Source: a virus (lineage: Duplodnaviria; Heunggongvirae; Uroviricota; Caudoviricetes). Taken from it: 35,473 nucleotides of DNA. The notes below the pieces were generated by a model, which saw only the letters and a list, made by a program, of their open reading frames with translations, was not told the DNA's origin and made no database searches. A program made the translations under genes and the position numbers. Where the stretch lies: IMG/VR virus record IMGVR_UViG_2850773344_000008; one strand, written 5' to 3'. This document shows, piece after piece, positions 9,729 through 29,982 of this stretch. The stretch's first letter is position 1. The number at the start of each line of letters is the position of its first letter.

Positions 9729-10476
9729 ATGAAAAATATTGCGACAGGCGGCGTTCTGGAACGCATCCGCCGACTGACCCCGCCACATGTAACCGCCCCA
9801 TTCAGAACGGTAGCGGAGTGGCGCGAGTGGCAACTTGCTGAAGGCCAGAAACGTAGCGAGGAGATCAACCGCCTGAATCGCCAGTTGCGGGTGGAAAAAA
9901 TTCTGAATCGCTCAGGCATCCAGCCGTTGCACCGTAAATGCTCGTTTGCGAATTACCAGGTGCAGAACGACGGCCAGCGATACGCGTTAAGCCAGGCGAA
10001 ATCCATCGCCGATGAACTGATGACCGGGTGTACAAATTTTGCGTTCAGCGGAAAACCTGATACCGGGTAGAATCACTTAGCGGCAGCTATCGGGAATCGC
10101 CTGCTGAAAGACGGTCAGACAGTGATTGTGGTTACCGTGGCTGATGTTATGAGCGCCCTGCACGCCAGCTATGACGACGGGCAGTCAGGCGAAAAATTTT
10201 TGCGGGAGCTGTGCGAAGTGGATCTGCTGGTTCTTGATGAAATTGGCATGCAGCGGGATACGAAAAAACGAGCAGGTGGTACTGAACCAGATTGTTGATC
10301 GCCGGACGGCATCGTTACGCGGTGTGGGGATGCTGACAAACCTGAACTATGAGGTGATGAAAACATTGCTCGGCGAGCGGGTGATGGATCGCATGGTCAT
10401 GAACGGCGGGCGCTGGGTGAATTTTAACTGGGAGAGCTGGCGTCCGAATGTTAGCCATTCGAGGGTTGTTAAGTAG
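9729..10476 (+). pseudogene. YdaV/DnaC-like helicase loader (AAA+ ATPase), inactivated
   Basis: In-frame TAG at 10068-10070 inside the Walker A motif (FSGKPDTG*); the same frame continues (NHLAAAIGNRLLKDGQTVIVV...VLDEIG) until an A6 run at 10263-10268, where the frame shifts into ORF 10171..10476. Confidence 0.6.
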
Positions 10477-13719: not shown

Positions 13720-14009
13720 TGGTGGATTTACTTAAAGCGGCGCGGGGGCAGATGTGCACCGTCAGAATTCCTGGCTACTGCAATCACGATCCGGAAACGT
13801 CTGTGCTGGCGCATTACCGACTGGCGGGAACGTGCGGAACAGCGATAAAGCCACACGATATGCAGGCAGCGATTGCCTGTAGCTCGTGCCACGATTTAAT
13901 CGACGGGCGGGTAAAAACCAGCGATTACACCAAAGAAGAATTACGCCTGATGCATGCAGAAGGTGTTTTTCGCACACAAGAAATCTGGAGAAAGGAGGGA
14001 TATTTATGA
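13719..14009 (+). CDS. YbcO-like (DUF1364) putative nuclease
   Basis: 96 aa; Cys/His-rich motifs CTVRIPGYCNHDPETSVLAHYR...ACSSCHDLID; start overlaps upstream stop (TAATG). Confidence 0.6.
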   Translation: MVDLLKAARGQMCTVRIPGYCNHDPETSVLAHYRLAGTCGTAIKPHDMQAAIACSSCHDLIDGRVKTSDYTKEELRLMHAEGVFRTQEIWRKEGYL

Positions 14010-14560
14010 TTTACCCAACGAATACAGGAAAAAGCGGAGAACACCTTCGTCTCACCACGCTGGAAAGTGTCTGGATTCAGGGAAAACTACGTATGTGGGG
14101 GCGCTGGTCGTATATTGGTGGCGGTAAGACGGGGAATATGTTTAACCTGATGTTGACCTCTAAAAAGCTGACAAAAACGGCAATTAACGAGGCGCTCCGG
14201 AGGATGAAAAAAGCAGGTCTGAACAAGTCTGAACTTGAGGCTTTTTTGCGGGATATGATTAACGGTAAGCAAAAGAGCTGGCTGGCGCATTGTACTGATG
14301 CAGAGGCGTTATGTATTGATCGGGTCATAAGTGAGGTGCTGGCAGAGCATCCAGGATTGATTAGCGTCCTTCGGCAACGGTATGAGGGGCGGGGGATGAC
14401 CAAATGCAAAATGGCTGAACTGCTGAATGATGCACACCCGAAATGGAGTTTAAGAACCTGTGAAAGACGCATTGAGCATTGGCTAAAGGTGGCAGAATTT
14501 ATTTTGTACAAACCAATGGTTATGGCTTTTGGTATAGAGAAAAAAGTTATTGCTTTTTGA
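14006..14560 (+). CDS. putative late-gene antiterminator Q
   Basis: 184 aa from Met 14006 (AAGGAGGGA upstream, ATGA overlap with preceding gene); last gene before the tRNA array and the lysis cassette, the canonical Q position. Family not verified. Confidence 0.45.
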   Translation: MIYPTNTGKSGEHLRLTTLESVWIQGKLRMWGRWSYIGGGKTGNMFNLMLTSKKLTKTAINEALRRMKKAGLNKSELEAFLRDMINGKQKSWLAHCTDAEALCIDRVISEVLAEHPGLISVLRQRYEGRGMTKCKMAELLNDAHPKWSLRTCERRIEHWLKVAEFILYKPMVMAFGIEKKVIAF

Positions 14561-14749
14561 CGTAAAAACTGCTTCAATTCTTGTACGCTTCGCAAAGCTG
14601 TACCGCGAGGCGAATAGCAGACATGGACATTTGAAAGAGCCCGCTTTATGCGGTTTTTTTTATACCTGAAAAACGGCACAGGACGTTAAACGTGCTGGTG
14701 ATCAGATGAGTTTGCAGATGTGATGACATATGGTTATTATTCTGCCTCC

Positions 14750-14826
14750 GGCCCTTTAGCTCAGTTGGTCAGAGCGAGCGACTCATAATCGCCAGGTCGC
14801 TGGTTCAAGTCCAGCAAGGGCCACCA
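14750..14826 (+). tRNA. tRNA with CAT anticodon (Ile2-lysidine type or Met)
   Basis: 77-nt cloverleaf: acceptor GGCCCTT/AAGGGCC, anticodon loop CTCATAA, T-loop TTCAAGT, encoded CCA. Confidence 0.8.
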
Positions 14827-14827
14827 A

Positions 14828-14904
14828 CCACCACTAGCTCATCCGGATAGAGCATCAACCTTCTAAGTTGACGGTGCGAGGTTCGAGTCCTCGGTGGTGG
14901 GCCA
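14828..14904 (+). tRNA. tRNA-Arg (anticodon TCT)
   Basis: 77 nt: acceptor CCACCAC/GTGGTGG, anticodon loop CTTCTAA, T-loop TTCGAGT, CCA. Confidence 0.8.
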
Positions 14905-14906
14905 GC

Positions 14907-14981
<75 letters not shown>

Positions 14982-14984
14982 TAT

Positions 14985-15059
<75 letters not shown>

Positions 15060-15672
15060 GCGAGATTTGAGACGAAGGTTGTTATTTGCACTGACACAAT
15101 ATTGTGTGGGAATGTCTGACTCCTTACCATCTCCTGTTCTGTGATGTTGTTTTGTTGCAGTTCCAGTGCTCTTTTTTCAGCACCAGAATGGTGCATTGTC
15201 GGTCAGGTTACGTAGTGAACCTCTGGCAGGGGACTGATAATGCATCATTCTGGTGTTGTAAATATCTCTTCGGACAACTTACAAAATATTCTAAGCAAAC
15301 CCCGGGAACACACTCTTAACTGCCTTGGTTGGCGGTTTTTTGCACAGCGCTCGGTATGTGTGAGCTGGAAATCAGATTTTGCATGGACTGGAATCATGCT
15401 GTTATTTAGGGGCGAAGAACTGGCTTTTTCTTCCGCCTTCTCACCAGTAACGATTAGAAAAATAATGAAATGCCCCCTCCGGGGAGGAGGACCGTAGAAA
15501 AAAGGACCCGCCAGCAAAAACATTGGGGATGAACAGCTTTCGCTACTCAGATTGCTGGCGGGTAAAGTTCCTCATGAATTAAGAATGCTACGCGATCTTT
15601 TTTAATGGAAATGAAAATTATTGTCAATTAGTCGTGCGTGTTTTTTCATACAATATTGGTAAAGGTGATTCA

Positions 15673-15703
15673 GGCCATCAGAGTTTTGCTGATGGCCTTT
15701 TTT
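15673..15703 (+). terminator. strong intrinsic terminator (tR'-like) just upstream of the lysis genes
   Basis: 9-bp stem GGCCATCAG/CTGATGGCC, loop AGTTTTG, then T6. Confidence 0.7.
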
Positions 15704-15871
15704 CTTTCCGATAGCACAGGTCTGTCGGGGGGGGGGATATGTATCAGATGGAAAAAATATCAACAGGCATTGCCTACGGCACCTCCGCCGGCAGTGCCGG
15801 CTACTGTTTTTTGCAGTGGTTGGATCAGTGAGGTGTACTGGCAATAGCGGACACTACCATTTGTTCTTTTT

Positions 15872-16663
15872 TTAAGCAGCCATCTGATGATATTTTTCCC
15901 TGAAGGCTGCCGGGGAGATATTCCCCAGACGAGAGTGACGACGCTGACGATTGTAGAAAATCTCAATGTATTCCCGTATTACTGAGATGGCTTCATCCCG
16001 GTTATTAAAACGATAGTGGCTCAGGCTCTCATTTTTCAGCGTTCCCCAGAAGCTTTCCATCGGAGCGTTGTCGTAACAGTTACCTTTACGCGACATTGAT
16101 GTTTTCAGACCAAACTGCTCCTGTATGACCCGGTAATCGTATGCGCAGTACTGTGAACCTCGATCAGAGTGGTGGATTAGCCCGGCAGGTGGGCGCTGGC
16201 TCCTGAGCGCCATAAACAGGGCTTTACCTGTCAGCTCTTTTGTCATGCGCTCTCCCATGGCGTAGCCGACAATTTCGCACGTATAAACATCTTTGATGCC
16301 AGCAACATACGTCAGGTCCGCCACCCAGACCTGATTTGGTGCTGTAGGAGCGAACGTCTGGTTCAGCAGATTTGGCGCAACTGGCAGATTGTGGTTCGGG
16401 TTCGTAGTCGCTCTGAACTTGCGTTTCTGCTTACAGCGTAGCCTCAGCTCCTTACGAAGACGTGCCAGTCGGTCACGACCAACGATGATGCCATTCTCTG
16501 CCAGCTCCGTCTGGAGCCGCCGGGTTCCATATGTTTCGCGAGTGCGGATATGTGCCACCTTAATCTCCAGTTTTAGCCGCTCATCACTTTGTTTTCTGTC
16601 TGAGGGTTCATGCTGTACCCAGTTGTAATAACCGCTCCTGGATACACCAAATACCTGACACAT
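15872..16663 (-). CDS. IS600 OrfB, 9-codon in-frame deletion variant
   Basis: 263 aa; ...ADLTYVA/GIKDVY... junction instead of ...ADLTYVATQEGWLYLAGIKDVY.... Confidence 0.8.
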   Translation of the reverse strand: MCQVFGVSRSGYYNWVQHEPSDRKQSDERLKLEIKVAHIRTRETYGTRRLQTELAENGIIVGRDRLARLRKELRLRCKQKRKFRATTNPNHNLPVAPNLLNQTFAPTAPNQVWVADLTYVAGIKDVYTCEIVGYAMGERMTKELTGKALFMALRSQRPPAGLIHHSDRGSQYCAYDYRVIQEQFGLKTSMSRKGNCYDNAPMESFWGTLKNESLSHYRFNNRDEAISVIREYIEIFYNRQRRHSRLGNISPAAFREKYHQMAA

Positions 16664-16698
16664 CGCTTCAATGGGAAATTGTTGTCGCCATTGTTCGA

Positions 16699-17001
16699 TT
16701 AACGCGTATTTTTCAGCGACTCCTGTGCAAAATACGCTGTTGCTTTTTTTAATATATCGCGCTCAAGGCGAGCTTCATTTAACGCCTTACGCAGTTGCAG
16801 AATTTCAGATTCCAGTTCAGCCACCGTGCGGGAACCAGGAGTACCGAGCCCTTTTCTGGCGGCGGTAACCCATTGTCCTAAAGTGCCTTCAGGAAGGGAT
16901 AATCGGGAAGCGCCTTCACTGATCGAAAGTTGATTTTCAAGAACCGTTCTGACAGCTTCGGCTTTGAACTCTTTAGAGTAACGTTGGGTTTTTCTGCTCA
17001 T
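16699..17001 (-). CDS. IS600 OrfA
   Basis: 100 aa identical to copy 1 OrfA. Confidence 0.9.
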   Translation of the reverse strand: MSRKTQRYSKEFKAEAVRTVLENQLSISEGASRLSLPEGTLGQWVTAARKGLGTPGSRTVAELESEILQLRKALNEARLERDILKKATAYFAQESLKNTR

Positions 17002-17193
17002 TATTAGCTCCTTCTGATGCCATTCTATTTCAGGAAGGAGTGTCCGTTAAACTCAGGCTACCTCACAGGTCAGTCCATCACAGTGGGCTGCGATTGGTGT
17101 GCTGGGAAGTCTGCTTCTGGGGCTTCTGACTTATCTGACGAATCTGTATTTCAAAATAAGAGAAGATAAGCGTAAGGCTGCGAGAGGTGAATA

Positions 17194-17709
17194 ATGTCGC
17201 CATCATTACGCAAGGCTGTTGCAGTTGCTATTGGTGGCGGGGCTGTTGCTATAGCATCTGTGTTAATCACTGGCCCAGGTGGTAACGATGGTCTGGAAGG
17301 TGTCAGCTACATACCATACAAAGATATCATTGGTGTATGGACTGTATGTCACGGACACACCGGAAAAGACATCATGCCTGGTAAAACGTATACCGAAGCA
17401 GAATGCAAAGCTCTCCTGAATAAAGACCTTGTCACTGTCGCCAGACAAATTAACCCGTACATCAAAGTCGATATACCGGAAACAACGCGCGGCGCTCTTT
17501 ACTCGTTCGTTTACAACGTGGGCGCTGGCAATTTCAGAACATCGACGCTTCTTCGCAAAATAAACCAGGGCGATATCAAAGGCGCATATGACCAGCTACG
17601 TCGCTGGACATATGCTGGCGGTAAGCAATGGAAAGGGCTGATGACCCGTCGTGAGATTGAGCGTGAAGTCTGTTTGTGGGGTAAGCGCCCCATCAGCGAC
17701 GTCTTGTGA
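17194..17709 (+). CDS. SAR endolysin (phage 21 R-type lysozyme); last ~9 codons supplied by the IS66-family terminus
   Basis: N-terminal Gly/Ala-rich signal-anchor-release segment ([20 protein letters not shown]), lysozyme core (...[11 protein letters not shown]...[28 protein letters not shown]...); IS66-type inverted repeat starts at 17681 inside the ORF. Confidence 0.8.
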
Positions 17710-17762
17710 AAATTGTCCTGTCTGGCAACAATCGCGCCCATCTATATTGATGGACACGAACG

Positions 17763-18437
17763 ATGAATTCCCAGACAACAAAAGATATTCCCTGCTTCCG
17801 TTCTTATTTGCCTGATGCCCTGCGTTTAAGATTTGAAGATAAACTGACCATCCGGGCCATCGCTCAGCGTCTGGGTCTCAGTCATTCCACAATACATACG
17901 CTTTTTCAGCGATTTCTTGCATCCGGTATCGCATGGCCATTGCCCGATTCAGTTTCATTCGCTCAACTTGACGCCATCCTTTATGCCAACAGAAAGAAGG
18001 AATTAACAGAGCCTCAAATCAGAGAAGGCTCATGGCGAAAAGAACGGCGAACCAGCTATAGCCGTGAATTTAAGGTCCGTCTGGCTAAGCAGGCATTACA
18101 GCCTGGGGCTGTTGTTGCCCGGATCGCCAGAGAACACGATATCAATAATAACCTGCTGTTTAAATGGAAAAGCCAGTACGAGGACGGCTTACTGAGCGAT
18201 GATGACATACAGGAATGCATGCCTGTCCCGGTGGCACTGACTGATACGCCGGAGCCGACCAGACCAGTTACAAATCCCTTCTGGCGTAACAAGCATGATG
18301 AGCGCCCTGAGGGGGCTCCCGGAAACGTCCCACGGTGCGAGCTGCATCTTAAATCAGGTGTGGTAAAACTGTTTGACCCTCTCACTCCGGAACTGTTACG
18401 GGCGCTAATCCGCGAAATGAAAGGGGGTATCCGATGA
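17763..18437 (+). CDS. IS66-family Orf1 (TnpA-like, HTH)
   Basis: 224 aa; HTH segment LTIRAIAQRLGLSHSTIHTLFQRF; C-terminal half (RRTSYSREFKVRLAKQALQPGAVVARIAREHDINNNLLFKWKSQY) typical of IS66 TnpA. Confidence 0.65.
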   Translation: MNSQTTKDIPCFRSYLPDALRLRFEDKLTIRAIAQRLGLSHSTIHTLFQRFLASGIAWPLPDSVSFAQLDAILYANRKKELTEPQIREGSWRKERRTSYSREFKVRLAKQALQPGAVVARIAREHDINNNLLFKWKSQYEDGLLSDDDIQECMPVPVALTDTPEPTRPVTNPFWRNKHDERPEGAPGNVPRCELHLKSGVVKLFDPLTPELLRALIREMKGGIR

Positions 18438-18784
18438 TAACGCTGCCGACCGGTACCAAAATCTGGATCATCGCTGGCATCACAGATATGCGTTGTGGCT
18501 TCAATGGCCTGGCTTCGAAGGTGCAGAACACGCTGAAAGATGACCCGTTCTCCGGGCATATCTTCGTCTTCCGGGGCCGCAGTGGCAAAATGGTGAAAAT
18601 ACTGTGGGCCGATCGTGACGGGTTATGCCTGTTCACCAAACGTCTGGCCGGTGACCCGGGAAGGGAAAGTGCACCTGACGCCAGCTCAGTTATCCATGCT
18701 ACTGGAGGGGATCGCGTGGCCACATCCCAAACGGACAGAACGGCCTGGCATCCGGATATAACCCGTGATAAAACAAGGGAATGA
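18434..18784 (+). CDS. IS66-family Orf2 (TnpB)
   Basis: 116 aa [28 protein letters not shown].... Confidence 0.8.
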
Positions 18785-20382
18785 ACAATGAACTCCCCGA
18801 TGATATTGAGCTGCTTAAAGCCATGTTGCGTAAGCAACAGAGTCGGCTTCGACAGTATGCCTGTCAGGTCGCGGGCTATGAGCAGGAAATTGAACGGCTG
18901 AAAGCGCAACTCGACAGGTTGCGTCGTATGTTGTTCGGCCAGAGTTCAGAGAAAAAGCGTCATAAGCTTGAAAATCAGATCCGACAGGCAGAAAAACGAC
19001 TGTCGGAACTGGAAAACCGGCTGAACACAGCCAGAAATCTTCTGGAAGATGCATCGTCAGTCACAGATTCACCTGACACCAGTCCCCCGTCAGAAAACCC
19101 GATCGCCAGTAAGCCTGAATTCCCGGGACGAAAATCTTCACGAAAACCGCTGCCGGCAGAACTTCCCCGGGAGACACATCGCCTTCTGCCTGCTGAAACC
19201 AGTTGCCCGGCCTGTGGAGGTGTTCTGAAAGAAATGGGGGAAACAATCTCAGAGCAACTGGATATCATTAATACCGCCTTTAAAGTTATCGAAACCATAC
19301 GTCCCAAACTGGCCTGTAGCCGGTGTGATGTCATCGTTCAGGCACCACTTCCTCCTAAACCGATCGAACGCGGTTATGCCAGTGCAGGGTTACTTGCACG
19401 GATCCTGGTCAGCAAATATATGGAACATATCCCTTTATATCGCCAGTCAGAAATATACGCGCGACAGGGCGTGGAGCTGAGCCGTAATACCATGGTGCGC
19501 TGGGTATCAGAAATGGCAGACAAACTCCGTCCTCTGTATATAGCGCTGAATGACTATGTTCTGGAGGCAGGAAAGGTGCACGCAGATGACACTCCGGTGA
19601 AAGTACTGGCCCCGGGGAACGGAAAGACGAAAACGGGTCGTCTGTGGGTATACGTCAGGGATGATCGTAATGCGGGTTCATCCCTGCCGGCAGCCGTCTG
19701 GTTCGCGTATTCGGCAGATCGCAAAGGAGAACATCCGCAGCTCCACCTGGCAAAGTATCAGGGCGTACTGCAGGCTGATGCCTATGCAGGTTATAACGTA
19801 CTGTACGAAACGGGCCGGGTGAAGGAAGCCGGGTGCCTGGCCCACGCCCGCCGAAAAATCCATGACGAGGATGTGCGCCGTCCGACAGAAATGACTCAGG
19901 AAGCGCTCAGACGGATAGCAGAGTTATACGACATAGAAGCGGAGATACGTGGCAGTCCGGCAGAGGAACGGCTTGCAGTCAGAAAAGCCAGAAGCGTCCA
20001 GTTGATGCAGTCGTTGTACGACTGGATACAGTTGCAGAGGAAAACGCTGTCGAAACATGCGGAGATGGCGAAGGCGTTCGACTATATCCTGAATCACTGG
20101 AATGCGCTGAACGAGTTCTGTCGTGACGGCTGGGTGGAAATAGACAACAACATCGGTGAAAACGCGTTACGATCGGTGGCGGTTGGAAGAAAAAATTATC
20201 TCTTTTTCGGCTCAGACAAGGGAGGAGAAAGTGCGGCGATCATCTACAGTCTGCTGGTCACCTGCAAACAGAACGAAGTGGAGCCGGAGGACTGGTTGCG
20301 CGAAGTGATCGAGAAGCTCAATGACTGGCCGTCGAACCAAGTGCATGAACTGCTGCCCTGGAACTTCTCGTCTGTAAAATAA
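18781..20382 (+). CDS. IS66-family Orf3 (TnpC, DDE transposase)
   Basis: 533 aa; N-terminal coiled coil/leucine zipper, CxxC...CxxC zinc motif (CPACGG...CSRCD), C-terminal DDE core. Confidence 0.85.
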
Positions 20383-20414
20383 TCCTTACGCTACGTACTT
20401 CTCGGGGCGCTTAC

Positions 20415-20694
20415 GGATGTTGGGACTTGAACCGAAGAACACGGCGGTGCGGAGTCCGGAGAGTAACGGAATAGCAGAGAGCTTCGTGAAAACGATAAAG
20501 CGTGACTACATCAGTATCATGCCCAAACCAGACGGGTTAACGGCAGCAAAGAACCTTGCAGAGGCGTTCGAGCATTATAACGAATGGCATCCGCATAGTG
20601 CGCTGGGTTATCGCTCGCCACGGGAATATCTGCGGCAGCGGGCTTGTAATGGGTTAAGTGATAACAGATGTCTGGAAATATAGGGGCAAATCCA
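20415..20694 (+). mobile_element. IS2 3'-terminal fragment (about 280 bp)
   Basis: Identical to the last ~280 bp of the two full IS2 copies (end of insD plus right terminus ...GGGGCAAATCCA); abuts the IS66-family right end. Confidence 0.8.
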
Positions 20695-20921
20695 GTCACC
20701 GCGATTATCTCCGCTCTGGTTATCTGCATCATCGTCTGCCTGTCATGGGCTGTTAATCATTACCGTGATAACGCCATTACCTACAAAGAGCAGCGCGACA
20801 AAAACGCAAGAGAACTGAAGCTGGCGAACGCAACCATTACTGACATGCAGCAGCGCCAGCGTGCTGCTGATGCACTCGATGCTAAATACACGACGGAGTT
20901 AGCCAATGCGAAATGAAGTGG

Positions 20922-22090
<1,169 letters not shown>

Positions 22091-22172
22091 TGGAGCACCT
22101 GTGTTGTTCTGAGGTGAGCATATCACCTCTGTTCAGGTGGCCAAATTCAGTGTGCCACTTCAAAAGCTGAAA

Positions 22173-22364
22173 ATGATGCTCTTCGGCGCAAGCTTGATAA
22201 TGGTGGTCGGGTGCTCGTCAAAGGAAAATGCCCTGTGCCATCCTCAGCCGAAACCTCCAGCGCCTCCGGCATGGGCAATGATGCCACCGTCGAACTCTCT
22301 CCAGTTGCTGGACGAAACGTTCTCGGTATCCGGGACGGAATCATCAGCGACCAGACAGCATTGA
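22173..22364 (+). pseudogene. Rz1 (o-spanin lipoprotein) remnant embedded in Rz
   Basis: +1 frame inside Rz: MMLFGASLIMVVGCSSK..., lipobox-like LIMVVGC followed by Pro-rich stretch PQPKPPAPPAWAMMPP; upstream start region is cut by IS911. Confidence 0.5.
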
Positions 22365-22496
22365 GAATGCTTCAGGAGTACATCAGGATCCAATGCCTTG
22401 GGGGGTAGCGGTAATTTTACTCATTATCCTTCAAATCAGATTCTGTTGTCAGAGGAATGGGGGAAGCTGGATTCGCAAGAGCTTTTTATGGGCAGT

Positions 22497-23009
22497 TTAG
22501 CTAAAAAAAGGCAACACGAAGCTAAAACTACCAACATAAAGTGCTGACCAGCTAGCAGCTGAAATCAGACTCACTGTATACACTTTCACTGGATGAAGTT
22601 GCAACATTCCTGCCACCAAAGGAGCAATGTAACGCAGCACGGCGATAAAGCGCGAAGTGAAAAGTATTGACACAGAGTTATTTTGCAACTGAAGGCGAAC
22701 CCGTTCTATTGTATTGGAACGGCTCGATATTATACATGCAAGTTGAGGGATATGCCCAATTATTATACCAAGATGGTAATTAACGATAGTACCGCACCAT
22801 GCGCCACTCATGACCGTGATTCCAGCTTCCCATGGTGAAAGAGTCGTCTTGCTGACTGTAATTACAGTGGCCATCATAATTGATGCTGGTGGCAATATCG
22901 CCGAAATGAGTAAAGTGGATTTTGTGAACGCTATTATAAAAAGAAGCCCCCATAGGCGATATGGATGAAGTACAAAATAGTTCATCAAAGCATTTATCCA
23001 CTCCATCAA
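22497..23009 (-). CDS. DedA/YqaA-family inner-membrane protein (moron)
   Basis: 170 aa, several predicted TM helices, AT-rich coding region, opposite strand to the flanking late genes. Confidence 0.45.
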   Translation of the reverse strand: MMEWINALMNYFVLHPYRLWGLLFIIAFTKSTLLISAILPPASIMMATVITVSKTTLSPWEAGITVMSGAWCGTIVNYHLGIIIGHIPQLACIISSRSNTIERVRLQLQNNSVSILFTSRFIAVLRYIAPLVAGMLQLHPVKVYTVSLISAASWSALYVGSFSFVLPFFS

Positions 23010-23203
23010 TGTCTTTCCTTCTGTGAATTTTTCTTTGCTATTTAACCGTGATACGACTTAATTTAGGCTTAAACACCTTACATTTACAAGGTACTCCTGT
23101 GGGGGGCCCTGCCACGGAGCGTCGCAGGAGTGAGTGATAAGGAAGAATTAAAGCAACCTATTGTGACAGGCAGCGATAACAGTAAATCACAGGAAGCATA
23201 ATC

Positions 23204-23968
23204 ATGGCAAAACCGGACTGGGAGGCCATCGAATCGGCATACCGGGCCGGAGTCCTTAGCCTCCGTGATATAGGCGAGAAATACGGCGTTACAGAAGGGG
23301 CTATCAGGAAGAGGGCCAAAAAGCTTGATTGGGCACGCAGTGGCGGTACGCAGGTTTGCAAAAATGGTACGCAAAAAAGGAAAGTGCGTACCAGCAGAAA
23401 GCCTGCCATTACTGGCCTTACACAAAAAAGTACGCAACTAAAAACAGAATCTACACCGGATACGAAACCGATACGCGGAATGCGTACCGATCCCCCGACT
23501 ACCCCATTCCAACCCGGTAACCAGCAGGCATTAAAACACGGTGGTTATGCCCGTCGCCTTCTGCTCAAAGATGAGGTGATAGAGGACGCTAAAGCGTTGA
23601 CGCTCGAGGACGAATTATTTCGCCTTCGTGCTAACAACCTTGTCGCTGCAGAGAATATTGGTCGGTGGTTGGTGTCGCTGGAAGATGCTAATGGGGACCA
23701 GGAAAGGAAGATGCTGATTGAAAATATCAGCGCCGCCGAGAAAGCAATGATGCGCAATACAGTTCGTATTGAGTCCATCGTTGGCACGCTTGCGACGGTA
23801 GGAAAAATATTTGCTGATACAGCCTACCGCAAGGCCGCCACTGATAAGGTGTCTCTGGAGGCTGATCGTCTTCGCCGTGATGCAGGTATTGATGATGGCA
23901 ATGGAGAGCGTGACCTCAATGACTTCTACTCTGACATCCAAACCGACGCTGAATCCGGCTTTACGTAG
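23204..23968 (+). CDS. terminase small subunit
   Basis: 254 aa; N-terminal HTH (LSLRDIGEKYGVTEGAIRKRAKK); immediately upstream of and overlapping the large-subunit gene. Confidence 0.6.
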   Translation: MAKPDWEAIESAYRAGVLSLRDIGEKYGVTEGAIRKRAKKLDWARSGGTQVCKNGTQKRKVRTSRKPAITGLTQKSTQLKTESTPDTKPIRGMRTDPPTTPFQPGNQQALKHGGYARRLLLKDEVIEDAKALTLEDELFRLRANNLVAAENIGRWLVSLEDANGDQERKMLIENISAAEKAMMRNTVRIESIVGTLATVGKIFADTAYRKAATDKVSLEADRLRRDAGIDDGNGERDLNDFYSDIQTDAESGFT

Positions 23969-24677
23969 TTTCTGGACTATGCGGGCACGTAACAAAGTGC
24001 TTTATGGTGGTCGGTCATCGTCAAAATCATGGGATGCCGCTGGCATTGCCATATTTCTGTCGAATAAATACACCCTGCGTTTTTGTTGTGCCCGTCAGAT
24101 CCAGAATAAAATCGAAGAGTCGGTGTATACCCTGCTCAAAATTCAGATAGACAGGTTTGGTCTGCGGCACCGTTTCCGTATTCTGAACAACAAAATCATT
24201 AACCGGGTTACTGGCTCGGAATTTGTTTTTTATGGATTATGGCGCAACATCGAAGAAATTAAGTCACTGGAGGGGATCGATGTGTTGTGGCTGGAAGAAG
24301 CCCACGCACTGACGGAATACCAGTGGAAAATTCTGGAGCCAACGATCCGTAAAGAGGGTTCGGAATGCTGGTTCATATTCAACCCCGGACTTGTTACTGA
24401 TTTCGTCTGGCGCAACTTCGTTGTTGATCCGCCCGAAGGCACTCTCATCCGCAAAATTAACTATGACGAAAATCCGTTTCTGTCTGACACCATGCTTAAG
24501 GTTATCGACGCGGCGCGACGCCGTGATCCGGATGGTTTTAAACATGTGTATGAGGGCGTTCCGGAGTCTGATGATGATGCGGCAATTAGACTGGCCCCCT
24601 GAATCTCCAGACAACCAGTATCACTTATTTAAGTGATAGTCTTAATACTAGTTTTTAGACTAGTCATTGGAGAACAG

Positions 24678-25043
24678 ATGATTGATGTCTTAGGGCCGGA
24701 GAAACGCAGACGGCGTACCACACAGGAAAAGATCGCAATTGTTCAGCAGAGCTTTGAACCGGGGATGACGGTCTCCCTCGTTGCCCGGCAACATGGTGTA
24801 GCAGCCAGCCAGTTATTTCTCTGGCGTAAGCAATACCAGGAAGGAAGTCTTACTGCTGTGGCCGCCGGAGAACAGGTTGTTCCTGCCTCTGAACTTGCTG
24901 CCGCCATGAAGCAGATTAAAGAACTCCAGCGCCTGCTCGGCAAGAAAACGATGGAAAATGAACTCCTCAAAGAAGCCGTTGAATATGGACGGGCAAAAAA
25001 GTGGATAACGCACGCGCCCTTATTGCCCGGGGATGGGGAGTAA
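24678..25043 (+). CDS. insC: IS2 InsC
   Basis: 121 aa; one substitution relative to copy 1 (KKWIAHAPL vs KKWITHAPL). Confidence 0.85.
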
Positions 25044-25906
25044 GCTTAGTCAGCCGTTGTCTCCGGGTGTCGCGTGCGCAGTTGCACGTCATTCTCAGAC
25101 GAACCGATGACTGGATGGATGGCCGCCGCAGTCGTCACACTGATGATACGGATGTGCTTCTCCGTATACACCATGTTATCGGAGAGCTGCCCACGTATGG
25201 TTATCGTCGGGTATGGGCGCTGCTTCGCAGACAGGCAGAACTTGATGGTATGCCTGCGATCAATGCCAAACGTGTTTACCGGCTCATGCGCCAGAATGCG
25301 CTGTTGCTTGAGCGAAAACCTGCTGTACCGCCATCGAAACGGGCACATACAGGCAGAGTGGCCGTGAAAGAAAGCAATCAGCGATGGTGCTCTGACGGGT
25401 TCGAGTTCTGCTGTGATAACGGAGAGAGACTGCGTGTCACGTTCGCGCTGGACTGCTGTGATCGTGAGGCACTGCACTGGGCGGTGACTACCGGCGGCTT
25501 CAACAGTGAAACAGTACAGGACGTCATGCTGGGAGCGGTGGAACGCCGCTTCGGCAACGATCTTCCGTCGTCTCCAGTGGAGTGGCTGACGGATAATGGT
25601 TCATGCTACCGGGCTAATGAAACACGCCAGTTCGCCCGGATGTTGGGACTTGAACCGAAGAACACGGCGGTGCGGAGTCCGGAGAGTAACGGAATAGCAG
25701 AGAGCTTCGTGAAAACGATAAAGCGTGACTACATCAGTATCATGCCCAAACCAGACGGGTTAACGGCAGCAAAGAACCTTGCAGAGGCGTTCGAGCATTA
25801 TAACGAATGGCATCCGCATAGTGCGCTGGGTTATCGCTCGCCACGGGAATATCTGCGGCAGCGGGCTTGTAATGGGTTAAGTGATAACAGATGTCTGGAA
25901 ATATAG
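25001..25906 (+). CDS. insD: IS2 InsD
   Basis: 301 aa; one substitution relative to copy 1 (MDS vs MDN). Confidence 0.9.
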
Positions 25907-26657
25907 GGGCAAATCCAGCAATCATCAAACTGTCTTGGATAGAAGCCGCAGTGGATGCGCACAAAACGTTAAATTTCGAACCCAGTGGAAGAAAGCGTAT
26001 TGGCTTTGACGTGGCTGACAGTGGTACAGATAAGTGCGCTAACGTTTACCGTCACGGATCCGTTGTTTTCTGGGCCGACGAATGGAAGGCCAAAGAAGAT
26101 GAATTACTGAAGAGCTGCCAGCGTACTTATCAGGCGGCGCTGGAGCGTGAAGCAGATATTGTTTACGACTCTATCGGTGTTGGTGCGTCTGCCGGTGCTA
26201 AATTCTCTGAAATTAACGCTGACCGGAAGAGCGAGAACGCATACGCGCGACGTGTGAATTACCAGAGGTTTAACGCCGGTGCTGGTGTGCATGAGCCAGA
26301 TGACGAGTACAACGGCATCCCCAACAAAGACTTTTTCGCAAATCTTAAGGCTCAGGCATGGTGGCTGGTGGCTGACCGTTTCAGAAATACGTTTAACGCC
26401 ATTAACAACGGAGAACAGTATCCTGTGGATGAGCTGATCAGCATAGATTCTCGTTGTCCGTTGCTTGAAAAGCTGAAACTGGAACTGACAACACCTCATC
26501 GTGATTTCGACCGTAACGGACGTGTGATGGTCGAAAGTAAAAAAGACCTCGCAAAACGCGAGATACCGTCACCAAACGTTGCTGATGCATTCATTATGGC
26601 CTTCGCGCCAATCGATACATCGCTGGATATCTGGGAACAGCTGGGGAGACAGGCCTG

Positions 26658-28124
26658 ATGGCACGAAACAAACAAGCCCTGCGGCGAACTGTGCAGGCCA
26701 CAGCTGATGGTTATGAGAATTTTATTGCCCAAGTAGGGATGCAGACACCTAACCAGCACTCAGCATCCACCTACCGGGCTAATTTCACCAGTCGTAACCG
26801 CATGCTGGTGGAATGGTCCTATCGTTCATCCTGGATCATCGGCGAAGCAGTCGATGCTATCCCGGATGATATGACCCGCAAAGGCATTCGCATCACTTCG
26901 GAAATTGATGCAAAAGATCGTGGCATTCTCGAATCACAACTGGATGAGTTGCAAATCTGGGATGCGCTGAATGACGTGCTGAAATGGTCGCGCCTCTACG
27001 GCGGCGCGGTGGGTTTCATCATGATTGAGGGGCAGGCACCAATGACCCCGCTGCGACCCGAAACCATCGGTAAGGGCAAGTTTAAGGGGATTCTCCCGCT
27101 CGACCGCTGGATGGTCGACCCGGCACTGACCCGCCGCATTAAAGATATGGGGCCGGACCTGGGTAAACCTGAGTTTTACGATGTGGTGACCACAGCAACG
27201 GGAATTCCTGCCTGGCGCATTCATCACAGTCGCCTGATTCGCTTTGATGGCGTCACGTTGCCATTTCAGCAGAAGATGACCGAGAACGAATGGGGAATGT
27301 CGGTTGTAGAGCGTATCTGGGATCGTCTTACCGCGTTCGACAGCGCTACTGTCGGCGCGGCGCAGCTGGTCTACAAGGCGCATTTGCGTACCTACAGCGT
27401 GGAGAAGCTACGAGAGCTTATCGCACTTGGTGGTCCTGCGTATGAAGCGTTGCTGAAGAATATCGACCTGATTCGACAGTTCCAGAGTAATGAAGGCATG
27501 ACGCTCATGGACTCGCGGGATAAGTTTGAAACCCATCAGTACAGCTTCAGTGGTCTGGATGACATCCTTTCGCAGTTTGCAGAACAGATTAGTGGCGCTG
27601 TTGGTATCCCACTGGTGCGGTTGTTCGGACAGTCCCCGAAAGGATTTTCTACCGGTGATGCAGACCTTGCCAACTATTACGATCGCATCAGTTCGTTGCA
27701 GGAGAGGCGTTTACGTCTTCCGGTGCGGCGGATACTGGACATCATGCATCGTTCGGAACTTGGCAAGCCGCTGCCGGACGATTTCACGTTTGAGTTTAAC
27801 CCGCTCTGGCAAATGTCTGATGTCGATCGCTCAACGGTGGCGTTAAACACCACCAACGCAATCAGTACGGCGCTGGGTGATGGTCTGATGACACTGAAAG
27901 CCGCTATGACTGATTTGCGAGAAAATTCTGACGTAACCGGCATAGGGGCATCCATTACCAACGAGGACATCGAGAATGCCGAAGATGAAGCGCCGCCCGG
28001 CATCGGCGAACCTGATGACGAACCGCAGGAGCCGTCAGGCGGAAATCCGGTATCAAACCAGCCTACGCAGGATAGCGAGGGCGGTCGGAGACATCGTAAA
28101 TGGTCGCTACGATGGTTCAAATGA
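26658..28124 (+). CDS. phage portal protein
   Basis: 488 aa; position directly after terminase (TGATG overlap); acidic C-terminal tail. Confidence 0.65.
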   Translation: MARNKQALRRTVQATADGYENFIAQVGMQTPNQHSASTYRANFTSRNRMLVEWSYRSSWIIGEAVDAIPDDMTRKGIRITSEIDAKDRGILESQLDELQIWDALNDVLKWSRLYGGAVGFIMIEGQAPMTPLRPETIGKGKFKGILPLDRWMVDPALTRRIKDMGPDLGKPEFYDVVTTATGIPAWRIHHSRLIRFDGVTLPFQQKMTENEWGMSVVERIWDRLTAFDSATVGAAQLVYKAHLRTYSVEKLRELIALGGPAYEALLKNIDLIRQFQSNEGMTLMDSRDKFETHQYSFSGLDDILSQFAEQISGAVGIPLVRLFGQSPKGFSTGDADLANYYDRISSLQERRLRLPVRRILDIMHRSELGKPLPDDFTFEFNPLWQMSDVDRSTVALNTTNAISTALGDGLMTLKAAMTDLRENSDVTGIGASITNEDIENAEDEAPPGIGEPDDEPQEPSGGNPVSNQPTQDSEGGRRHRKWSLRWFK

Positions 28125-28758
28125 CAGTATCACGGAAATTATTGCGGCGCTGGAGCGTTACAGTGAAATCATCACCCCCTGGGCGACAAAGGTCGCGGAA
28201 AACTTTACTGCGGACCTAACCCGGCAGAACGAGAAAGTTTGGCGGCAACACAGCAAGAACATCAGTCGCGAGCTCCGCAATCTTGTGGAAAGCGCTCCTG
28301 TGGGCCAGGTGATGCAATCCATCATCGCCGAACAGGTCAAGTACATCAAATCTCTGCCTCTCGAGGCCGCAGACAGGGTGTACGACATCCAGAACAAAGC
28401 GATAGAGGCTGTTGTCACCGGTGGTCGGGCGGAGCAGTTTGCTAAAGAGATTGCATCTACCGGCGATGTTGCTAAGTCTAGGGCCGATCTGATTGCCCGA
28501 ACGGAACTGGGAAGAGCAACGGGCGCGCTGGATATGGCCCGAGCGATAGATATTGGCTCGGATGGTTATATTTGGCGTACAGCCGATGATGGCGATGTCC
28601 GAGATTCCCACGATCACATGAAAGGTAAATTCGTCCGCTGGGATTCACCTCCAACTTTGGACGGCATGACCGGCCACGCGGGCGAGCTGCCAAACTGCCG
28701 CTGCTATAAAGAGATCGTGTTTGTTCGCGTTCCATTCGCAATGAAAAGGGCAGCATAA
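27976..28758 (+). CDS. MuF-like head morphogenesis protein
   Basis: 260-codon ORF overlapping the portal 3' end by 149 nt (true start may be later or non-ATG); C-terminal MuF-type motifs (IARTELGRA..., WRTADDGDVRDSHDHMKGK). Confidence 0.55.
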   Translation: MPKMKRRPASANLMTNRRSRQAEIRYQTSLRRIARAVGDIVNGRYDGSNDSITEIIAALERYSEIITPWATKVAENFTADLTRQNEKVWRQHSKNISRELRNLVESAPVGQVMQSIIAEQVKYIKSLPLEAADRVYDIQNKAIEAVVTGGRAEQFAKEIASTGDVAKSRADLIARTELGRATGALDMARAIDIGSDGYIWRTADDGDVRDSHDHMKGKFVRWDSPPTLDGMTGHAGELPNCRCYKEIVFVRVPFAMKRAA

Positions 28759-28761
28759 CCC

Positions 28762-29982
28762 ATGAAATACTTTTTTGAGACCAGGCTCGGGGAAACCCGA
28801 TACCGCCTGGCTGACGGCTCGTTGCTGTGCAAAGACGTGCCGATAGGACGAACAGGTAAGCAGCTCTATGGTGCTGATGACCTGCCAAAACTGAAACCCG
28901 ATAAGTTCGTTGAAATAGTCGTCACGCGTTCTCCTGAGCAGGTATTCCATCCGGCCACGCTTGCCTCATTCGAAGGGATGAGCATCACGATCCTGCATCC
29001 TGAAGATGAAAACGGGAATGTGCGGCTGGTAAATCCCGAGAACTGGAAAGTGCTTGCTGTCGGGCACCTCCAGAATGTCCGGCGCGGGACGGGTGAGCAG
29101 TCTGATTTGATGCTGGCTGACCTTATCGTCAAAGACGAAAGCGCCATTCAGCTTATCGAAGATGGCCTGCGCGAAGTGTCGTGCGGCTATGACGCGGAGT
29201 ACGAGCAGACCGAGCCAGGTAAAGCCGAGCAGGTCGATATTACCGGAAACCATGTGGCTCTTGTCCCTAAAGGCAGAGCCGGAAATCGTTGTGCAATTGG
29301 AGACAGAGACACAATGGCAAATCAAAAGAAAAACTGGTGGAACCGCATGCGTGCGGCCATCAAGACAGGAGATGCCGACACCATGAACGAACTGGTGGAG
29401 TCGGCTCCCGCATCGGTTACAGGAGATGAGGGGGATTTGCCGCAGGGCGTTAATCTCAACATCAACCTGTCCCCGCAGCAACCACTACCGGACAAAGCAC
29501 CAGAGATGGGCGGAGATCCAACCGGCGACAGTGATGATGACCTCAAAACATTACTGAAAGCCCTGCTGGCTAAGCTGGAAAGAAATGCCACGGGCGATAA
29601 CGATAATAAGCCTGACGATAATCCGACCGGTGACGGCGAGGACGATGAAGAGGAAACCACGATTACTGGTGACTCAGCCTGGCGTGCCGAAGTTATCGTT
29701 CCGGGTATCGATCTGAGCCGTAAGATGAAACCGACCGCGTTCAAACGCGAGGTTCTGGCTTCTGCTGACAAAACGCTGGTTCGCCAGATAGTCGGTGATG
29801 CGGATATCCGCAAATTACCGAAACAATCGGTCGACATGGCGTTTAATGCCGTGTCTGAGGTTGCCAAAGGGCGAAACACCCGCGCCACCACCGGCGATGC
29901 ACAGCGCCTAAACATGGGCATGACCAGTATCGCTTCCCTGAACAAACAAAACGCTGAATTCTGGGCAAACCGTAAAGGGTAA
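28762..29982 (+). CDS. putative head scaffold/protease protein
   Basis: 406 aa; position between MuF-like and capsid genes; long acidic, Asp/Gly-rich low-complexity segment typical of scaffolds. Confidence 0.4.
   Translation: MKYFFETRLGETRYRLADGSLLCKDVPIGRTGKQLYGADDLPKLKPDKFVEIVVTRSPEQVFHPATLASFEGMSITILHPEDENGNVRLVNPENWKVLAVGHLQNVRRGTGEQSDLMLADLIVKDESAIQLIEDGLREVSCGYDAEYEQTEPGKAEQVDITGNHVALVPKGRAGNRCAIGDRDTMANQKKNWWNRMRAAIKTGDADTMNELVESAPASVTGDEGDLPQGVNLNINLSPQQPLPDKAPEMGGDPTGDSDDDLKTLLKALLAKLERNATGDNDNKPDDNPTGDGEDDEEETTITGDSAWRAEVIVPGIDLSRKMKPTAFKREVLASADKTLVRQIVGDADIRKLPKQSVDMAFNAVSEVAKGRNTRATTGDAQRLNMGMTSIASLNKQNAEFWANRKG

Follow-up and report, generated by a model that had tools for sequence, protein, structure and literature searches.

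Lysis genes and holin leader of the prophage

The DNA analyzed here, a 35,473-nt stretch of a virus record (the window), was identical to CP037923.1 (Shigella flexneri 5a M90T) across positions 4006-24560 and 16658-35473, and exact-protein look-ups from the window found loci in six complete Shigella flexneri chromosomes. Direct reading of positions 15727-15736 gave GGGGGGGGGG, ten consecutive G residues (G10). The run is followed by AT at 15737-15738, by a first ATG at 15739-15741 (Met1), and by a second in-frame ATG at 15748-15750 (Met4). The run therefore ends 2 nt upstream of Met1 and 11 nt upstream of Met4, exactly where an earlier note on this DNA had placed it. No other homopolymer in the 35.5-kb window was as long as G10, the runners-up being 8-nt runs of A or T. 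The base composition of the window predicted approximately 0.05 runs of G10 or C10, and a chance origin of the run was rejected on this ground. A G-quadruplex was likewise rejected from the sequence, because a single contiguous G-run cannot give four separated G-tracts. The features around the run are listed in Table 1.

Table 1. Positions of the G10 run, the surrounding leader elements, and the interrupted lysis genes in the window
Feature	Position	Strand	Remarks
Terminator-like hairpin AGGCCATCAG-AGTTTTG-CTGATGGCCT, then T-run	15672..15704	+	~30 nt upstream of the G tract
Predicted leader hairpin	15704..15733	+	ViennaRNA; core CCGATAG 15708-15714 / CTGTCGG 15722-15728
G10 run, G-rich Shine-Dalgarno region of S	15727..15736	+	C expected after 15733 absent in this record
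5' fragment of class II holin gene S, codons 1-30	15739..15828	+	ATG1 15739, ATG4 15748, W23C
IS600 (IS3 family) within S	15829..17065	-	3-bp duplication CAG at 15826-15828 and 17066-17068
3' fragment of S, codons 31-71 plus stop	17069..17194	+	Frame resumes downstream of the CAG duplication
R, phage lysozyme, Gly/Ala-rich hydrophobic N-terminus	17194..17709	+	PF00959, 151 bits
Further IS elements of the lysis cassette	17763-20382 and 20922-22090		
Rz fragments	near 20667-20915 and 22173-22364		

The open reading frame (ORF) starting at 15739 ended after 30 codons, and its stop codon was supplied by the left end of an IS element (TGAGGTGTACTGGCAATAG...). When the 5' fragment was rejoined with 17069-17194, the two encoded a 71-aa protein that matched the Pfam family PF04971, "Bacteriophage P21 holin S", with 116 bits (E 6e-34, profile positions 1-63/64) and shared approximately 80-90% identity with holins from Stx and lambdoid phages. 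A tblastn search with S matched 436 phage records, most of them annotated as holin. The PF04971 match and the ATG codons at 15739 and 15748 bore out the earlier description of S as a dual-start class II holin gene of the phage 21 type. The stop codon of S overlaps the start codon of R, which, judged from its N-terminal sequence alone, would be an endolysin of the signal-arrest-release type and the partner of a pinholin.

The same description had omitted the insertion that interrupts this "dual-start pinholin gene". S is split after codon 30 by IS600, both here and in all S. flexneri orthologues, and the codons for the second transmembrane segment lie 1.2 kb further on, leaving no intact ORF with two transmembrane segments. 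The name IS600 was taken from Shigella plasmid annotations, which the full-length copies of the element matched at 99.7%, and transposase domains were present. The copy in S was 1237 bp long, with an in-frame deletion of 27 bp in orfB relative to the 1264-bp copies, two of which occur at full length in the window (2611-3874 and 31686-32949). In addition to IS600 in S, the lysis cassette has been hit by an element of the IS66 family, located after R, and by a further one of the IS3 family that splits Rz/Rz1, which makes three different IS elements in all; the terminase gene, too, is interrupted. The "dual-start pinholin gene" is thus a pseudogene in a decaying, IS-riddled, defective lambdoid prophage. 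Because S is split by IS600 and the lysis cassette is otherwise broken by two IS elements, the tract has no function here, whatever its length.

The 5' fragment of S also carries a substitution, TGG to TGT at 15807, which replaces Trp23 in the first transmembrane segment of the holin with Cys (W23C). This change was common to all serotype-5-group orthologues and was found in neither the other S. flexneri copies nor the E. coli copies. W23C is thus a true lineage marker in the pseudogene, not an error.

The terminator-like hairpin upstream of the tract has a 10-bp stem with six G-C pairs and a T-rich tail, and is conserved in the leaders of the relatives; it may be a terminator that is read through by Q-modified polymerase. 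Downstream of it, ViennaRNA predicted a second hairpin in which the core stem is extended by pairing of the U/C-rich stretch 15704-15707 with further G residues and in which the 3' arm overlaps the Shine-Dalgarno region. The variants of the relatives, A/G at 15711 and C/T at 15726, retain the predicted pairing through G-U. Analogous hairpins overlapping the Shine-Dalgarno region were predicted in the leaders of 933W, cdtI, ev110, and Klebsiella 2b, and the z-scores of the leader hairpins were weak (-0.8 to -2.0). The predicted hairpin resembles the leader structure that, according to Barenboim et al. in 1999, reportedly controls the dual start of S21. In an Rfam search over the leader and the tract, no known RNA family was found, and only the four tRNAs passed the threshold.

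The G tract is located in the Shine-Dalgarno position of S, as the earlier note had proposed. At the same place, other members of the family have gcggaggtgaggctATG (an S21-like allele), gcgaggtggggttATG (cdtI), and gcgggagacggggtATG (933W), and the G-rich stretch is probably the Shine-Dalgarno and leader region usual for these holins. In intact relatives, it would base-pair with the 3' end of 16S rRNA and would also form the 3' arm of the small predicted leader hairpin. In the predicted duplexes, G-runs could pair with the anti-Shine-Dalgarno sequence by G-C and G-U pairs, with energies of -7.0, -9.4, -10.1, and -10.9 kcal/mol for G4CG3, G6CG3, G7CG3, and G10, respectively. The leader folds also shifted with tract length in silico.

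Several other features were observed upstream of this leader. A Q-like DUF1133 gene (14006-14560), with a weak match to Phage_antitermQ, is followed directly by a terminator-like CCGC...GCGG element plus T8 at 14640-14661. Downstream of the DUF1133 gene there are four tRNA genes with CAT, TCT, TGT, and TCC anticodons (14750-15059), in a layout that resembles the late regions of Stx phages without the toxin gene. A hairpin at 15178-15258 on the plus strand, situated between these tRNA genes and the leader of the holin gene, has a near-perfect stem of approximately 26 bp (MFE -50.4 kcal/mol, z -6.7); it gave many sub-threshold Rfam matches to miRNA precursors and matched no known family.

Tract forms in relatives

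Relatives of the locus were fetched with a flank-anchored pattern containing a variable gap, which retrieved 50 contigs from IMG/VR, 15 from metagenomes, and 2 genomes from GTDB; a further three annotated records were included. In at least 75 relatives from these four kinds of source, the tract had the form G(4-7)-C-G(2-4), with the exception of one CTG7CG2. The other forms were G4CG3, G4CG4, G5CG3, G6CG3, and G7CG3, and all forms, the exception included, were interrupted. No uninterrupted run of eight or more G residues between the same flanks was found in the targeted scan of IMG/VR, nor was a run of eight or more G residues found in the retrieved metagenome contigs or GTDB genomes, and the longest pure G-run outside this record was G7. 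The view that an uninterrupted G10 is the natural state of the tract was therefore contradicted by the comparison, since every other copy has the interrupting C and none has eight or more G residues in a row. A pairing of the interrupting C with a downstream CCGCC (15784-15788) was also considered and dropped, because the relatives vary CCGCC synonymously and the predicted folds skip it.

Among the loci carrying both the IS600 insertion and W23C, G7CG3 was found in Sf8401 (CP000266), the 2012 M90T record (CM001474), GCA_026013175, the NCTC strain (UGYR01), and GCA_032123375.2, and G6CG3 was found in the orthologous S. flexneri locus of CP026799. G7CG3 was also present in S. flexneri SFBU1023 and ECMA0423. 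The closest of 5,426 complete E. coli genomes matched at 99.3%, with G7CG3 and the difference at the W/C codon; as this was the best E. coli match, none of these genomes has G10 on this haplotype. An annotated 46-aa "Lysis protein S" (...LSGGRDMYQMEK...) translates exactly TCG GGG GGG CGG GAT ATG, a reading that exists only with G7CG3, upstream of the IS-truncated holin. This protein and its variants occurred on 162, 6, 1, and 1 contigs, giving a total of at least 170 for S. flexneri. ORFs specific to G10 were absent from a collection of 15 billion proteins. The 30-aa truncated holin and two ORFs spanning G10 had no exact match in Logan assemblies, where short-read contigs are interrupted by the tRNA cluster and by IS600, which limits look-ups across G10.

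A comparison of tract length with relatives had been proposed earlier as a check. As run here, it gave a tract fixed as G7CG3 in S. flexneri (at least 170 contigs, with one locus having G6CG3) and a 5' G-run varying from four to seven residues in the family. On identical flanks of 175 nt, the long-run alleles were polymorphic, with G6, G7, and once G5, whereas the G4 alleles were monomorphic within haplotypes (17/17 and 16/16). The contrast between monomorphic G4 and polymorphic G6/G7 is the length dependence expected of slippage, and some of the G5/G6/G7 variation may itself be assembly error. The suggestion that the tract is prone to slippage thus gained some support for the long alleles. 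In CP026799, the private homopolymer differences were C5 to C4 at the window equivalent of 15473 and G6 for G7 in the tract. That assembly may carry consensus errors of the same kind as those discussed below.

Assembly error or recent deletion

The G10 run is real in the record and probably not real in the organism. According to the source paper, CP037923.1 was assembled from PacBio RSII reads with Canu 1.7 on raw reads and polished by Pilon with RNA-seq reads only (PMC7132871). Under such polishing, a weakly transcribed region would remain unpolished, which gives a reason for errors to survive in the leader of a silent prophage. In the same paper, PacBio coverage is given as approximately 157-fold, and 98.8% of the genome had an RNA-seq depth of at least 5 (PMC7132871), so that the site may have been covered in polishing.

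To see how the record departs from its relatives, the window was compared with the nearest loci. Against GCA_026013175, there were no substitutions in approximately 30 kb, and the differences were single-base indels, among them the absent C and one at a T within a T-run. When five sequences were aligned over 4006-24560, the window had no private substitution, and its sole other private difference was an extra A at 10263; in the same alignment, the NCTC locus had two private substitutions and no indels. Across 16658-35473, no difference was private to the window, its alignment with the NCTC locus being free of gaps and that with GCA_026013175 free of mismatches. Over 31.5 kb, the private differences of the window from its nearest relatives therefore numbered two, and both were single-base homopolymer indels. 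At 10263, the window had A6 and four orthologous S. flexneri loci had A5. This A-run lies inside a 108-aa ORF that was called in the relatives and was not called in this genome, and the extra A is probably a second assembly indel.

As all the private differences are indels in a homopolymer context, they match the signature of residual consensus error in long-read assemblies. We consider it likely, with a probability of roughly 80%, that G10 is a PacBio assembly error in which the C of G7CG3 was lost during consensus calling, the choice between error and mutation being drawn from comparison of the assembled sequences. The true sequence of this Shigella flexneri lineage would then be GGGGGGGCGGG (G7-C-G3), and the single C among the G residues would have dropped out of an under-polished PacBio consensus. 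A homopolymer read error had been offered in the earlier note as a fallback; it is now the best-supported of the readings, in view of the G7CG3 and G6CG3 of the orthologues, the assembly method, and the private differences consisting of indels only.

The other explanation with some weight is a real and recent one-base deletion in the M90T stock, by loss of the C or by a change of C to G together with loss of one G. Such a deletion would be neutral, because the holin gene had already been inactivated by IS600, and a pseudogene in a decaying prophage is under no selection against the change. The region is also mutable, the neighbouring G-run varying among G5, G6, and G7 on identical flanks, and the high coverage given in the source paper (PMC7132871) speaks for the assembled base count. 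However, loss of the lone non-G base is no simple slippage product. Furthermore, GCA_026013175 and the 2012 M90T record, with no or almost no substitutions relative to the window, both have G7CG3, and the other private difference of the window is again a homopolymer indel, with no private substitutions, a pattern that fits error better than divergence. The 2012 M90T record may be partly reference-guided: it has a full-length IS600 at the site in S, like Sf8401, whereas the de novo assemblies have the 27-bp-deleted copy, which is also found in CP026799 and the NCTC strain. This makes the 2012 record weaker as independent evidence. On balance, a real deletion is unlikely, and if G10 were real, it would still be silent in this genome.

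CP037923.1 serves as the RefSeq reference genome of M90T, a strain in wide use, and the value of a consensus error at G10 is mainly cautionary. Where transcription is poor, this assembly appears to have kept homopolymer indel errors as a result of polishing with RNA-seq reads alone. Any phase-variable tract or frameshift that seems to be present in CP037923.1 needs a check against the reads before it is interpreted.

Dual start, expression tuning, and known systems

In the antiholins of lambda and phage 21, an additional positive N-terminal residue distinguishes the protein from the holin (PMC9636201). The N-terminal extension encoded before Met4 in S is Met1-Tyr-Gln, which contains neither Lys nor Arg. 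Since the extension has no basic residue, we infer that the longer product need not be an antiholin, even in MYQMEK alleles whose gene is intact. In the H-19B and 2B8 alleles, ATG1 is replaced by ATA (locus position 301-303); the annotated start is Met4, with GGAG 11 nt upstream. These are single-start holins; a start at Met4 alone thus suffices for this holin family, in which the dual start is not conserved.

A functional role of the tract could be sought in the intact members of the family, the variable 5' G-run (four to seven G residues) of MYQMEK-type leaders acting as a dial on lysis timing there and not in the dead copy described here. The length of the G-run would alter both the pairing with the anti-Shine-Dalgarno sequence and the stability of the hairpin that sequesters the Shine-Dalgarno region, and this would shift pinholin translation, and with it lysis timing, among lambdoid and Stx-type phages. 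There was no evidence of selection for tract variability, and we hold such a dial to be improbable.

Less probable still is the proposal of the earlier note, that a slippage-prone G-tract in the Shine-Dalgarno region tunes, by its length, the choice between Met1 and Met4 and hence the holin:antiholin ratio or the expression level: the tract does sit at the Shine-Dalgarno position, the predicted anti-Shine-Dalgarno duplex does strengthen from -7.0 (G4CG3) to -10.9 kcal/mol (G10), 5' G-runs of four to seven do occur within the family, and the leader folds do vary with tract length in silico, but IS600 splits S here and in all S. flexneri orthologues, leaving no product to tune, every relative has a C within the tract, which on at least 170 S. 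flexneri contigs is fixed as G7CG3, Met1-Tyr-Gln is without the basic residue by which the antiholins of S21 and lambda are defined, Met1 is missing altogether in H-19B-type alleles, and the G4 alleles are monomorphic within haplotypes. With S split by IS600, a holin:antiholin ratio set by the tract is impossible in this genome.

Among the known systems closest to this one is S of phage 21 (the S21 pinholin, PF04971): the rejoined S matches PF04971, has Met at positions 1 and 4, and adjoins a phage lysozyme gene, R. The lysis genes of phage 21 include the signal-arrest-release endolysin R21, and the R that adjoins S here has a hydrophobic, Gly/Ala-rich N-terminus. In contrast to phage 21, S is here split by IS600 after codon 30, and the extension is Met-Tyr-Gln instead of Met-Lys-Ser, so that the extra charge of the 71-residue antiholin of S21 is missing (PMC9636201). 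The Shine-Dalgarno sequence of phage 21 is GGAGGTG, whereas the relatives of this holin have a G-run interrupted by one C. The alleles of cdtI, ev110, and 933W resemble the present one in having a G-rich Shine-Dalgarno sequence directly upstream of the holin gene.

The likeness to phase-variable contingency tracts lies in a long mononucleotide run whose length could affect expression and in the occurrence of G6 and G7 in close relatives. Unlike such tracts, the natural tract is interrupted, with G7CG3 fixed on at least 170 S. flexneri contigs, and the downstream gene here is an IS-disrupted pseudogene with no known on/off or graded phenotype. As in residual homopolymer errors of long-read assemblies, a one-base indel is private to a PacBio RSII/Canu assembly that had no polishing with DNA short reads, other assemblies of M90T or of near-identical strains contradict it, and a second private homopolymer indel accompanies it, with no private substitutions. 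A departure from that pattern is that the lost base was a lone C within a G-rich run and not a unit of the run. The locus holds no new biology: it is an ordinary lysis cassette, inactivated by IS elements, in a defective prophage.
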